A model generated the notes under the pieces. The model worked only from the letters and a program-made list of their open reading frames with translations. It searched no databases and had not been told where the DNA came from. Shown in pieces: positions 258 to 17,744 of a DNA stretch of 20,087 nucleotides (position 1 is the first letter of the stretch; every line of letters begins with the position of its first letter). The position numbers and the translations under genes are program-made. Source of the stretch: a virus. The stretch covers positions 1-20,087 of the IMG/VR virus record IMGVR_UViG_3300022227_000002; one strand, given 5' to 3'.

Positions 258-635
258 CTATACCGCAGTTAAAACCATTTGGCTAGAAGTTGAGTCATCT
301 GTAACTGACCACTTATAACGGACTCCAGAAAAGTCAATTGCGGTTTTATTAAACACTTTTCTAAGTCTAACTCCGTCACCAGCTCCGCCTATGTAACCTG
401 TTAAAGACATTTCATTATCATTTAAACTATTAATGTCTTTATCAACTAACCTACATACTCCTTCATTTCCGGAATCATCATTAGCATCATCTACCATAAA
501 TTTATTAGATCCACGCTGTCTTTTAATGATTCCAACTGCCGAAACTGCGTTTGTACCCACTTTCACAGTAACAACAAAATTGTTGTCTGAACCACTAACG
601 ATCCCAAAATGCTTCTTATTAACTGGTCTACCCAT
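258..635 (-). CDS. Small putative virion protein, MGRP-N-terminus paralogue 2
   Basis: 125-aa ORF similar to 717..1082 (MGRPxNKxxFG, IxxQRxxxKFxV, LVxK); preceded by a CATAAATA late box. Confidence 0.7.
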   Translation of the reverse strand: MGRPVNKKHFGIVSGSDNNFVVTVKVGTNAVSAVGIIKRQRGSNKFMVDDANDDSGNEGVCRLVDKDINSLNDNEMSLTGYIGGAGDGVRLRKVFNKTAIDFSGVRYKWSVTDDSTSSQMVLTAV

Positions 636-716: not shown

Positions 717-1082
717 TTAAATTACGTCTACAGTTCTAACTGCTGAAGTAGCCGCATTAGCGTCGCTTAACGTATATTTGAAATTAGCTGTTCCTTCTGT
801 TTGAACAGTTCTGTTACGAAGTTTTGTAACTTGCGTAGCAGTTCCACTATCGTCTTTAGCATTGATTATGAATTCACTCGCCGCTAAAGCACCTTGTGCC
901 TTATTAACTAGAGTCATTACTTCTTCTGCACCATTGGCATTAACAAGAAATTTTCTAGTTGATCTTTGTCTAACGATTGAACCAGCTGTTTGTGACTCCG
1001 CACCAGCGGCTTTTCTCCAAGATGTAACTTGAATATTGCCTGCACCAGTTCCGAAGTTTCTTTTGTTGATAGGTCTTCCCAT
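717..1082 (-). CDS. Small putative virion protein, MGRP-N-terminus paralogue 1 (possible capsid decoration protein)
   Basis: 121-aa ORF with SD AAGGGAG, its own late box and terminator; G/A/T/S-rich composition; located downstream of the capsid gene. Confidence 0.7.
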   Translation of the reverse strand: MGRPINKRNFGTGAGNIQVTSWRKAAGAESQTAGSIVRQRSTRKFLVNANGAEEVMTLVNKAQGALAASEFIINAKDDSGTATQVTKLRNRTVQTEGTANFKYTLSDANAATSAVRTVDVI

Positions 1083-1467: not shown

Positions 1468-2271
1468 TTATTCTAGCTTATTCACCAGGTTTCTAGCGCC
1501 ATATGTCACTAAAAAGGACGCATTGGCTCTTTTGTATATGGTTGCAATTTCTAATTGATGTTGAATAGTTGGTAGTCCTATATATTCATCTGATACTTGA
1601 AACAATCCAACTTGTTTATATGTTCCTGCTTTAACTAATCCAAATACATCCATACTGTGACTTGCAGGCTTTAATAATAATGCATCTGCACCATCGGCCA
1701 CATATTGATGTGATCGTGATGTCATACCCCATTCATTTTTAACATTTAATTGATAAGTTCTTTCACTAGAAGGTTTACTATCTGATACATCTCTAAATGT
1801 ACTATAAAATACACTTCTCCATTTTACATATGCCATTATTAATTTAGATGTTTCTACTTTAAGATTTTTAACTGTATTTTTTCCCATGTCACTTGGTGCT
1901 AAAACATCTGCTCCTGCAGATTCTAATTGTTTTCCTAAATTTACTAATAATTGTTCACTGGTATCTGGTTTATCTAATACGCAACAATGACCATCTGGTA
2001 GTGTTGAACATAAACATACATCTACACTTAATTGTATTTTTGGGAATTTTGTTTTAATTTTGTTTACAACTTCTGCTTGGAATTTCCAATCAGGTGTCCA
2101 AGTTTTTTTATTAGGTGTTATGAATAATAGAAAATCTTCTAGACCAGAGTCTATGTCTGTTTGAATTCTGTTGTTAATGTCTTTAAGACTATAACTTGAA
2201 TTGTCTGGGCCTAATCCAGCTTCATATGTTTCACCAGACTGGTTGACAAAGATTGGCTGGAGTAAGTCCAT
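1468..2271 (-). CDS. hemB: Porphobilinogen synthase (delta-aminolevulinic acid dehydratase)-like protein lacking the N-terminal arm
   Basis: Ordered PBGS motifs: DLLQPIFV; DVCLCSTLPDGHC (Zn site CxCx7C); AGADVLAPSDM; IMAYVKWRSVFYSTFRD (first catalytic Lys); RTYQL; DGADALLLKP (second catalytic Lys); FQVSDEY; KRANASFLVTYGA. Confidence 0.9.
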   Translation of the reverse strand: MDLLQPIFVNQSGETYEAGLGPDNSSYSLKDINNRIQTDIDSGLEDFLLFITPNKKTWTPDWKFQAEVVNKIKTKFPKIQLSVDVCLCSTLPDGHCCVLDKPDTSEQLLVNLGKQLESAGADVLAPSDMGKNTVKNLKVETSKLIMAYVKWRSVFYSTFRDVSDSKPSSERTYQLNVKNEWGMTSRSHQYVADGADALLLKPASHSMDVFGLVKAGTYKQVGLFQVSDEYIGLPTIQHQLEIATIYKRANASFLVTYGARNLVNKLE

Positions 2272-2277
2272 TTATGT

Positions 2278-2469
2278 TTATTCTGCGATTTGATCGCACA
2301 TTTCTTTTGTTGCTTTGTTTCCAGCTTCTTTGTCATAAACCCAAAGGTAAGAATATACAATTTGGTCACCTTTTTGCATACATCTTTTACCTAAATCTAA
2401 TGCAGGATTTTTTACTGAACAAGCTGTTAATACTAACAACGAAAGAAAAAATATAGCTATTGTTTTCAT
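2278..2469 (-). CDS. Small lipoprotein
   Basis: MK + hydrophobic stretch + lipobox LTA/C; two further Cys in the mature part. Confidence 0.8.
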   Translation of the reverse strand: MKTIAIFFLSLLVLTACSVKNPALDLGKRCMQKGDQIVYSYLWVYDKEAGNKATKEMCDQIAE

Positions 2470-2475
2470 ACTAAC

Positions 2476-2503
2476 ATTATAGCGTATTTTGGTAAAAAGT
2501 CAA
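2476..2503 (-). promoter_or_regulatory. Sigma70-type (early) promoter TTGACT-N16-TATAAT
   Basis: -35 at 2498-2503, -10 at 2476-2481; only 6 nt between -10 and the lipoprotein ATG. Confidence 0.75.
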
Positions 2504-14972: not shown

Positions 14973-16740
14973 AAACCTCCATATCGTTAGCGTATGACGT
15001 AAATCCATTTTCTTTTATTACTTTAAGTACATTATTCACACGTCCTATTAATTCATCTTTGTGACTTATAAGGAATATGTTTTTACTTCTTTCTCTACTC
15101 ATCTTTTTAAGAATTGCTAAAGAACTTTCTACTCCTGCTACATCCATACCACTATCTATTAATTCATCTATAAACAATAAATTAATTTGTTGATATAAAT
15201 TTTCCCAAACATCTCTAAATGCAAAACTTAATCCTAATATTAATCTGTTTCTTTCACCTCTACTTAAATTATCAAAGTCTAAATCTTGTCCTAATTGTGT
15301 TATTTCTACAGTTAAATCGTTTTTAAATGTAACAATATGAGGTAAACCTAATTGATCCAAATATTTCATTAATCTACTATTAAGGAATCCTAGATTTTGA
15401 TCTATAATTTTCTTTCTAATAAAACTGTCTTTGTTAGTTAATAACTTCATTAAAAACTCTTGGTGTTCTTTTAGTGTTTGCATTGTATTAACATTATCCC
15501 ATTTAATTTCTTGTACTGCTTGATTTTTAAGTTCATTAACTTGGTCAGTGTAAGGATTTTCATCTAAATATTTTGTTTTAAGATTTGATTTTAAATTATC
15601 TAAATGGTTTTTATGTTCATATGCATCTGTAACTGTATCATAAAATGTTTCAGGTTTGGTTCCAAGTTTTCCTAATTTTCCTATTTCATTTTCAACTTTA
15701 CTTAATTTTATACTTAAATCTATAACATAACTATTTGCTTCGCCATATTCTTCTTCTAATGTTCTTTGCATACCTCTTATTTTTTCTATTGGTAAATCTT
15801 GACCACAAGCATAACATATAGCTTCTTTATGTAAACCTTCTAAATCTATATCTATTTTCTTTGCAACTTTGTCGGATTGTTCAATTGTAGATTCATAATT
15901 TTCTACATCTGTTTGTAATTGCATTATTTTGTCATTAAGTTTATTCCAAGATTCTAATTCTTTATGTAATTTTAATTCTTTTTCAATATCTACAGATTCT
16001 AATTTTTTAATAGTGTCTTGCATATCTTTTAAATCTACTTGTTTTTGTGTTTCCCATGCTTTTGATTTATTTGTAAGTGATACTATTGTTTCTTCAATTC
16101 TATCATTGCTAATTTTAATTTGTTCTAATCTTGCAGTTTCTAATGCAATTTCTTCTTTCATTCCTTTAATTTTTTCTTTAAGTATTGCCGCCTTTTCAGA
16201 TAATAATGTTATACCCAATAATTGTTCAATTATATCCTGTTGTTCTGTATGATGTAAACTTAAAAAAGGTTGTGTATATGTGTTTAAAGCAACAATATGT
16301 TTAAACATCCTTGAACTTATACCCAGCATACGGCTTATATCTTCTTGTGTTTTTCTGCTGTCTCCTTGGGCATCTTCGGACATTTCTTGTTCTTGATCAT
16401 TTACATAATACTTCAATATGTTTGGTTTTCGTCCACGTTCTATTCTATATTTTGTTGATGCTTTTTCAAAAGTTATTGTAACCATCATATTTTTATTATT
16501 GGTTTTGTTAACTAAATTATCTCTTTTAATTTTGGTTAATGCTTCACCAAATAATGCATAACTTAAAGCATTTATAATGGTTGTTTTACCTGTACCATTT
16601 CTACTTCCAGCGTCATCACCACCCATATCAAGATTTTCTCCTAATACTAATGTTAGTAATTGTTGTTGGAAATTTATTGCTTGGGTTTGTTGTCCCACGC
16701 TCATGAAATTTTTTACTGTCAGGTTATTAATTTTAATCAT
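14953..16740 (-). CDS. gp46: Recombination endonuclease ATPase subunit gp46 (Rad50/SbcC)
   Basis: KNFMS, Walker A NGTGKTT, coiled coil with Zn-hook CYAC, signature LSRGE, Walker B LLFIDE, ISH. Confidence 0.95.
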   Translation of the reverse strand: MIKINNLTVKNFMSVGQQTQAINFQQQLLTLVLGENLDMGGDDAGSRNGTGKTTIINALSYALFGEALTKIKRDNLVNKTNNKNMMVTITFEKASTKYRIERGRKPNILKYYVNDQEQEMSEDAQGDSRKTQEDISRMLGISSRMFKHIVALNTYTQPFLSLHHTEQQDIIEQLLGITLLSEKAAILKEKIKGMKEEIALETARLEQIKISNDRIEETIVSLTNKSKAWETQKQVDLKDMQDTIKKLESVDIEKELKLHKELESWNKLNDKIMQLQTDVENYESTIEQSDKVAKKIDIDLEGLHKEAICYACGQDLPIEKIRGMQRTLEEEYGEANSYVIDLSIKLSKVENEIGKLGKLGTKPETFYDTVTDAYEHKNHLDNLKSNLKTKYLDENPYTDQVNELKNQAVQEIKWDNVNTMQTLKEHQEFLMKLLTNKDSFIRKKIIDQNLGFLNSRLMKYLDQLGLPHIVTFKNDLTVEITQLGQDLDFDNLSRGERNRLILGLSFAFRDVWENLYQQINLLFIDELIDSGMDVAGVESSLAILKKMSRERSKNIFLISHKDELIGRVNNVLKVIKENGFTSYANDMEVYEPTGR

Positions 16741-17744
16741 TACAAGTCTCTATAAATTGACAACAATACTTTTTTATCGTAGTTGTCAGAATCAATTGCT
16801 TCTATTTCTTTTGAAACAATTTGATCCACAGATTCAAATTTTGTAACATCCAAATCTGTATGAATTTCTTCATCTTTCTTACTAGGTATTAATACAATTT
16901 CTCTACAATTATACTCCTTCATGAAATTTTCTTTAATAAAACTTGCTTCTTCATAACTAATATCTACATCCAAAGTTACTCTTAAATGCATTTTTGGTTT
17001 CATTATTTCTTTTGTTTTATCTAGTAATTCACTTAATTTAACATTTTTATATTTTGGACAGTTCCACCAATTAATATATTCAGGTTCTTTGCCCCATTCT
17101 AAAAACATCATTCCTCTTTCATTGTCATCAACATCTGCGTAATTGTGTGGCATAGCATTACCAATATAAGTTATATTTTTAGCTGTTTGTCTTTTATGAA
17201 AGTGTCCAGAAAATACATACTCTTGATTTTTAAAATTAGCAGGCATTAATTCTCCAGTATCTGGCATTTCTATCATAGCGTTCATTAAGAAATGTGGTAA
17301 TTCAAAATGTCCAAACATATATTTGGCTTTTATTTTGGTTACTTTTTTCCATTCATCACCAATCATCCATGGAACCATAGTTACCTCTCCTATAGTAGTG
17401 ACTTCATTAACAATAGTAATACCTGGAATAAATTTTCCAAATTCTACAGAATGAATATCTCGTTTATCTTTAAAGTATAAATCGTGATTACCCGGAAAAA
17501 AATAAAAATTTTTAAAAGCCTTACCTAATTTTTCTAAACTTCTTAAAGAAGCGTCCATAGTTGTTAAATTTAATGAATTTCTATTATGATGCCAATCACC
17601 GCAAAACATTCCTGTTTCACAACCTCGTTCTTTGGCTTGTTCTATATACCAATCTATAAATTCTTCGCAATCGTTATTATGAATTTTTGAATTTGATTTT
17701 AGTCCAAAATGAATGTCCGTGAATACTGCTAATTTTTTAAACAA
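16740..17744 (-). CDS. gp47: Recombination endonuclease subunit gp47 (Mre11/SbcD)
   Basis: Phosphoesterase motifs DIHFG, GDWHH, GNHD, GHFE, SGHFH; TTG start 7 nt after AGGAG; TAATG overlap with gp46. Confidence 0.95.
   Translation of the reverse strand: MFKKLAVFTDIHFGLKSNSKIHNNDCEEFIDWYIEQAKERGCETGMFCGDWHHNRNSLNLTTMDASLRSLEKLGKAFKNFYFFPGNHDLYFKDKRDIHSVEFGKFIPGITIVNEVTTIGEVTMVPWMIGDEWKKVTKIKAKYMFGHFELPHFLMNAMIEMPDTGELMPANFKNQEYVFSGHFHKRQTAKNITYIGNAMPHNYADVDDNERGMMFLEWGKEPEYINWWNCPKYKNVKLSELLDKTKEIMKPKMHLRVTLDVDISYEEASFIKENFMKEYNCREIVLIPSKKDEEIHTDLDVTKFESVDQIVSKEIEAIDSDNYDKKVLLSIYRDL

Follow-up and report, generated by a model that had tools for sequence, protein, structure and literature searches.

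Porphobilinogen synthase (PBGS) is a textbook 'morpheein', an enzyme whose activity is set by an arm-dependent equilibrium between octamer and hexamer. What, then, is a phage doing with a PBGS that has no N-terminal arm at all? The question is raised by a gene in a 20,087-nucleotide stretch of viral DNA (positions 1 to 20,087 of IMG/VR record IMGVR_UViG_3300022227_000002), referred to here as the window. The source record is a 104.7-kb fragment, estimated to represent 30% of the genome, and the GC content of the window is 29-40% in 2-kb windows, mostly near 34%. The initial annotation of the gene described a minimal PBGS with an altered allosteric site, and proposed either a deregulated low-order oligomer or a modulator that co-assembles with the host enzyme.

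The gene, its family and its neighbourhood

Two features define the gene and its limits:

1468..2271 (-): viral hemB, coding for a 267-aa porphobilinogen synthase without an arm (Pfam ALAD; AF2 model; Foldseek)
2272..2277 (-): 6-nt spacer, in which the TAA of the upstream ORF is followed by ACA and an in-frame TAA that abuts the ATG

The product of 1468..2271 (-) starts MDLLQPIFV. An ORF in the same strand and frame (2278..2469) stops 6 nt before the hemB ATG, and the in-frame TAA directly before that ATG excludes a longer N-terminus. Thus, the initial annotation was correct in giving the protein as 267 aa, beginning at DLLQPIFV with no longer start available.

Against the Pfam ALAD profile (PF00490, EC 4.2.1.24) the protein scores 140.2 bits (cut-off 24.6; E 1.1e-40), with a match spanning profile positions 26-315 of 317. 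Its 126 bits for the NCBIfam equivalog PRK09283 fall below the cut-off of 297 because of divergence and deletions, and such a score would stop the protein from being named a PBGS automatically. For annotation this means that equivalog thresholds miss the arm-less HemB family. The AF2 model (pLDDT 95.8) is a TIM barrel that Foldseek matches to solved PBGS structures at a TM of 0.89-0.92 (best E 3.4e-21), with 0.90 for 1B4E and 0.91-0.92 for human PBGS. The model superposes on the E. coli, human, P. aeruginosa, yeast and T. gondii enzymes at a TM of about 0.9 over the query. Judged by its sequence, the ORF is a real gene and a member of the porphobilinogen synthase family. Arm-less HemB is a variant of a known enzyme family, and a search of the literature for phage hemB or PBGS returned no published description.

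The carrier of hemB is a marine T4-like giant phage. The gene follows a gp23-type capsid gene of like orientation, 0.9 kb further downstream, and relatives keep this position: independent contigs show the order T4-type portal, S77 protease, scaffold, gp23-type capsid, two small ORFs and ALAD, and the gene order of the window matches the conserved capsid-to-ALAD synteny. This is the late structural module, an odd location for a metabolic gene. Elsewhere in the window, 14207-17744 (-) encodes a PDDEXK nuclease, a Rad50-like SMC/AAA_23 protein and an Mre11-like metallophosphatase, which are ordinary T4-like replication and recombination genes. The only Megablast matches of the window were to jumbo phages, in fragments of capsid and recombination-nuclease genes.

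The T4 late-promoter motif TATAAATA was observed once (3.4 expected), and the 11 sigma-70-like sites are not above chance (11.7 expected). An 11/12 sigma-70-like site (TTGACT-16-TATAAT) lies at 2476-2503 (-), before the 63-aa ORF at 2278-2469 (-). This ORF, just upstream of hemB, has a lipoprotein-like signal at its start (…LLVLTAC), and together with hemB it may form a small transcription unit inside the late module. Downstream of hemB, 258-635 (-) and 717-1082 (-) encode paralogous proteins of 125 aa and 121 aa, both of which start MGRP(I/V)NK…FG and match no PHROG.

Relatives of the gene are numerous among viral contigs. IMG/VR contains at least 135 contigs with an arm-less HemB relative, and identity within the viral clade is 38-99%. 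Additionally, a large protein database yielded 45 clusters of 263-284-aa relatives (38-97% identity) on contigs of up to 372 kb, and a HMMER scan of 1.8 billion representatives displayed a score gap between the viral relatives and ordinary enzymes of 320-340 aa. PHROGs holds no family for arm-less HemB. The median pairwise dN/dS is 0.20 (248 usable pairs), with values of 0.02-0.2 in close pairs, indicating that the gene is under purifying selection. The decay of the gene under relaxed selection, which the initial annotation had considered, is not what a ratio of about 0.2 among viral homologues describes.

Active site, allosteric column and subunit interface

The following residues were placed by alignment with E. 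coli HemB from MG1655 as the reference, the last in the light of the predicted dimer as well:

1984..2016 (-): codons of the catalytic Zn site, Cys86, Cys88 and Cys96 (CxCx7C), invariant in all aligned viral and cellular relatives
1822..1824 (-): Lys150, the Schiff-base lysine corresponding to E. coli K195
1714..1716 (-): Arg186, where E. coli has Glu232, the ligand of the allosteric Mg
1669..1671 (-): Lys201, the Schiff-base lysine corresponding to E. coli K247
1558..1590 (-): Asp228 (QVSDEY) to His238, a region 9 residues shorter than in cellular PBGS and part of the predicted dimer interface

The CxCx7C triad and both catalytic lysines, already recognised in the initial annotation, are present in the alignment with E. 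coli; K150 and K201 are invariant, as are the substrate carboxylate ligands S227 and Y257 (P side) and R160 and Q174 (A side, where PBGS has two Arg and a Gln). The active-site metal site of PBGS is either a Cys3 site for Zn or an Asp-rich alternative, and the phage protein has the former. Across the viral clade, D84, S127, K150, R160, R171, Q174, K201, S227 and Y257 are kept together with the Zn triad. R171, the second lid Arg, sits one residue away from the position of E. coli R216, nearer the YQ motif. The near subclade has a one-residue deletion just before Lys150 (AY-VKW). One relative (L030, IMG/VR contig 3300022836_000022) reads QVGDEY, not QVSDEY, with Gly at the substrate-binding Ser column.

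The claim of an altered allosteric site holds in part. The Glu is indeed absent, but the DGAD motif to which the change had been assigned is the wrong spot and was rejected as the Mg-binding region: it aligns with E. coli QGAD, and the ligand column, 15 residues before the second Lys, contains Arg186 instead. In E. coli this column is Glu232, the allosteric Mg ligand according to structural work on the E. coli and P. aeruginosa enzymes. The site is phylogenetically variable: Glu occupies the column in 80 of 113 representative homologues and another residue in the remaining 33. At this position Ser is found in HIMB59 HemB, the nearest cellular enzyme, and Ala in the Devosia-like enzymes, the next cellular relatives. 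Because the nearest cellular relatives also lack the Glu, the change predates the phage; on the evidence of the alignment, the Mg-site alteration is inherited and is no phage invention.

Similar to the catalytic residues, the replacement of QVSGEY by QVSDEY was read correctly at the outset and appears in the alignment. Outside the near viral subclade, Asp occurs at the Gly column in one of about 115 aligned sequences, and Asp228 is essentially specific to that subclade. Each of the 33 D-type sequences has Asp228 together with His238, whereas no G-type sequence has the pair, a co-occurrence that is clade-linked and hence suggestive only.

The arm reported missing from the window protein is absent across the viral clade, as indicated by sequence alignment and by start sites. 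Two residues precede the LIQP strand in phage HemB, against a median of 30 in representatives, and nearly all viral relatives have ATG directly before [DEKQR][LF]IQP. One viral subclade retains a stub of 11-13 aa without the R-rich motif. In a phmmer comparison with the PDB, phage residue 2 aligns with position 29 of E. coli PBGS, a chain of 323 residues. In addition to the arm, the window protein lacks 4 residues that follow the Zn loop, 6 that precede the first lysine strand, 1-2 of the lid and another 9 behind SGEY. Compared with the HIMB59, P0051 and E. coli proteins, the deletions are at shared sites and there are essentially no insertions; the sole insertion relative to HIMB59 is one extra C-terminal residue. 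Three cellular PBGS among the representatives looked arm-less. The two for which DNA could be read, P0180 (L257 2336-3343) and P0108 (L258 2135-3220), proved to be start-codon miscalls, each with a normal RxRRLR arm upstream; the third is P0169. Among the sequences compared, true arm loss appears to be viral so far, with HIMB59 half-way.

The arm of cellular PBGS is about 25-30 residues long and wraps around the barrel of its partner, and the enzyme is an octamer or hexamer composed of dimers. In cellular PBGS, an octamer-specific contact between arm and barrel stabilises the closed active-site lid, octamer/hexamer (morpheein) control requires the arm, and the assembly state governs activity (PMC7729013). 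An arm-less enzyme might therefore have a poor Km or poor activity unless the loss is compensated. A two-copy complex prediction for phage HemB gave a symmetric homodimer with a score of 0.75, the best of three controls reaching 0.00; contact agreement between runs was 100% and the partner pLDDT was at least 92. The mark applied is reached by 20 of 30 proteins solved as one-chain pairs and, among those solved as single chains, by 1 of 23, although these calibration counts hold only roughly for a prediction made with a custom alignment. Additionally, structures of PBGS oligomers already exist, and the pass may stem from resemblance to these and is no demonstration of binding. The predicted interface comprises residues 153-155, 177-180, 204-211, 228 and 231-249. 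It takes in the segment shortened by 9 residues, and Asp228 pairs with His238 of the other chain.

Taken with the absent arm and a dN/dS of about 0.2, the predicted homodimer makes it a fair inference that the canonical arm-dependent octamer/hexamer control has been lost. The proposal of a deregulated low-order oligomer accordingly survives in part: the arm is absent, a homodimer is predicted and the gene is not decaying, but the Mg change that was to contribute to deregulation is inherited.

Probable cellular origin and haem-pathway context

A search of 185,579 species genomes found no HemB of the short clade. The best cellular matches were HIMB59-type marine Alphaproteobacteria at 35-40% identity, and the window protein is 36% identical to HIMB59 HemB. 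In a PMSF tree the viral clade (support 99) is sister to the HIMB59 HemB clade (99), the two being joined at 96, although the tree was built from a quick search and AT-rich composition could pull the viral and HIMB59 sequences together. The pair nests inside other proteobacterial HemB, and the sister placement was repeated in a second tree.

HIMB59-type HemB (L085-L090) shares with the phage protein the Zn Cys triad, the lack of Glu at the Mg column and a shortened N-terminus. It differs in its length of 306-307 aa, in a 17-18-aa stub before LIQP that lacks the RxRRLR motif, and in keeping four internal segments, of 4, 6, 2 and 9 residues, which are absent from the phage protein. A stop is found just upstream of HemB in 6 of 6 HIMB59-type genomes. 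The initial annotation had asked whether close cellular homologues might be equally armless; they go half of that way, HIMB59 having only its stub of 17-18 aa. The HIMB59 operon reads hemC-hemB-hemE-hemH-hemF, with hemB overlapping the end of hemC, and this setting indicates a housekeeping enzyme. HIMB59 hemC (L090 1475-2953 (+)) encodes 492 aa, with the deaminase domain only in residues 4-229; what follows may be a second domain fused to it, perhaps HemD. Based on these comparisons, viral hemB most likely derives from a HIMB59-like marine alphaproteobacterial lineage, probably one close to the host. The tetrapyrrole gene set likewise suggests that AT-rich Alphaproteobacteria of the HIMB59-like kind are the donors and also the likely hosts.

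The window also contains a second candidate gene of the pathway:

13245..13817 (+): HemD-like ORF of 190 aa with the uroporphyrinogen-III synthase fold (AF2 pLDDT 85; Foldseek)

The 13 best Foldseek matches of this ORF in the PDB are all uroporphyrinogen-III synthases (E 3.5e-6 to 5.6e-4). It has no Pfam match at E<0.01 (HEM4 reaches 13 bits, under the cut-off) and a profile search of PDB sequences returned nothing relevant, so that only the fold search identified it. The ORF is conserved in relatives, and the UniRef name of one cluster begins 'Tetrapyrrole biosynthesis'. Going by the modelled fold, the HemD-like ORF is a probable pathway partner of HemB.

Further steps of the pathway are found on related contigs. 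Contig G038 (L255 2656-6185, 13841-15046) has a tight hemF-hemC-hemE-hemB operon with alaS 7.6 kb away, and on contig G029 (L256 7333-9980) about 1.5 kb separates hemE-hemB-hemC from T4-type baseplate wedge genes (phrog_219, E 3e-181). G004 and G025 each carry alaS (TIGR01821, above cut-off) together with hemB, and G055 has hemB and hemE on the same contig. The HemB of all five starts at ALAD profile position 26-27. Co-occurrence of alaS and arm-less hemB extends to four contigs. In most records, that of the window included, hemB appears alone, but these records are fragments of 2-37% of a genome. No alaS, hemC or hemE was found in the 104.7-kb record (about 30% of the genome), and no haem oxygenase (PF01126) was found in five records. 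Relatives of the viral 5-aminolevulinate synthase are far commoner than hemB, occurring on 557 viral stretches in IMG/VR (loci L168-L247); hemB is present on only 2 of 30 larger alaS contigs.

The known tetrapyrrole auxiliary genes of phages are alaS, hemO, pcyA/X and pebS. Contigs with hemB and with hemC, hemE, hemF or alaS extend this set to the middle of the pathway, and no description of a multi-step phage haem pathway of the G038 and G029 type was found in the literature. Viral alaS has been described with hemO and pcyA/X in aquatic myophages, and the viral AlaS is without the regulatory (haem feedback) site (Wegner et al. 2024, PMC11480375). In the main text of that paper there is no mention of hemB, hemC, porphobilinogen synthase or PBGS, and uroporphyrinogen III comes up a single time, solely as a pathway intermediate. 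The cassette of viral alaS with hemO/pcyX resembles arm-less hemB in being a set of tetrapyrrole auxiliary metabolic genes of marine or freshwater T4-like or pelagimyophage-like phages (PMC11480375). It covers the first step and haem catabolism only, whereas arm-less HemB belongs to the middle of the pathway.

Proposed role, alternatives and comparison with solved enzymes

Considering the evidence as a whole, we think it quite likely that the gene encodes an active, streamlined auxiliary metabolic enzyme. The analysis shows its sequence and fold, the conservation of its residues, purifying selection, the phylogeny and the gene contexts; from these we infer that the protein is active and unregulated, how it oligomerises and what it does during infection. 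The phage PBGS would be a Zn-dependent enzyme that converts two 5-aminolevulinate to porphobilinogen and has been pared to a bare TIM barrel. Its donor would have been a HIMB59-like hemB from which the allosteric-Mg ligand and half of the arm were already gone, and the phage lineage would then have shed the rest of the arm and four surface segments. The working form is probably a homodimer joined barrel to barrel, or a larger complex made up of such dimers, with no arm-dependent switch. In the near subclade, a new Asp228-His238' contact may patch the shortened interface. During infection, the flux of ALA towards uroporphyrinogen and haem would be kept or raised. HemB would have the HemD-like protein encoded alongside it as a partner, and related phages would add viral AlaS, HemC, HemE and HemF. 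Counting against an active enzyme are two unusual changes of the near subclade beside catalytic residues, the AY-VKW deletion before Lys150 and the Asp in the SGEY motif, as well as the low equivalog score, the possible cost of arm loss for closing the lid, the location in the late module and the lack of alaS, hemC and hemE in the 104.7-kb record.

The modulator proposed in the initial annotation is disfavoured, and we regard it as unlikely. According to this proposal, the arm-less subunit joins host HemB via the barrel interface and shifts or locks its quaternary state, as an activator or as a dominant negative. The predicted interface does consist of barrel surfaces that are also found in cellular PBGS, the phage protein is 36% identical to HIMB59 HemB, and PBGS activity depends on the assembly state (PMC7729013). 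A modulator, however, need not retain every catalytic and substrate-binding residue at a dN/dS of about 0.2, and the operons with hemC, hemE and hemF, with alaS nearby, in which related phages have the gene are the setting of a working pathway enzyme. The interface shortened by 9 residues and the clade-specific Asp-His pair argue for pairing with itself and not with the host subunit. Additionally, there is little to deregulate in the enzyme of the likely donor or host, which is without an Mg switch and whose arm is a mere stub.

A weakly active or non-catalytic protein with another role, such as binding of ALA or Zn or a virion-associated function, seems slightly more improbable still. The conserved place behind the capsid gene (0.9 kb, same strand) would suit a virion protein, the arm that helps to close the lid is missing, and the NCBIfam equivalog cut-off is not reached. 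Yet the full catalytic set is conserved, sister lineages have operons with successive enzymes of the pathway, and a HemD-like partner is encoded in the same genome; phage metabolic genes, too, are often scattered among structural genes.

Lastly, a bacterial hemB wrongly joined to phage DNA by contamination or chimeric assembly is effectively refuted. In its favour, a tblastn search of 50,697 isolate-phage records found no true isolate-phage homologue: the matches did not exceed 26-29% identity and were mostly to short unannotated records resembling host DNA. Against it, the same portal-to-ALAD order occurs in many independent contigs from different samples, and no member of the short clade was found in the 185,579 species genomes, where the best match is 40% identical.

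Returning to the active, streamlined enzyme, we suggest more tentatively, and at somewhat less than even chances, a broader reading. The phage clade would possess a fully active PBGS without arm or allosteric metal, in an assembly unlike that of any cellular PBGS. This enzyme would be part of an undescribed, near-complete pathway from ALA to coproporphyrinogen or protoporphyrinogen (AlaS, HemB, HemC, HemD-like, HemE, HemF) spread over genomes. If so, the arm would be a regulatory add-on and not a catalytic necessity. A diverse arm-less family under selection offers a direct natural test of what the PBGS arm does: should these proteins be active, the arm is dispensable for catalysis, and the shortened interface, the Asp228-His238' pair and the lid deletions would show how its loss is compensated.

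Compared with canonical octameric PBGS (E. coli 1B4E/1I8J, human 1E51, P. aeruginosa 1B4K), the phage protein has the same TIM barrel and the same two lysines. Its Zn site is of the E. coli and human type, and the substrate-binding Ser, Tyr, Arg and Gln are common to the canonical enzymes. It differs from them in having no arm (28 E. coli residues are missing) and no Mg-ligand Glu, and is 56-57 residues shorter overall. The hexameric low-activity forms (human F12L, 1PV8, and the Rhodobacter capsulatus hexamer), in which the arm lacks the octamer-specific contact, are the nearest known analogues of an enzyme that works without support from arm to barrel. These hexameric forms nonetheless still have an arm and assemble through it, whereas the phage protein has none and its barrel-to-barrel dimer is a prediction.
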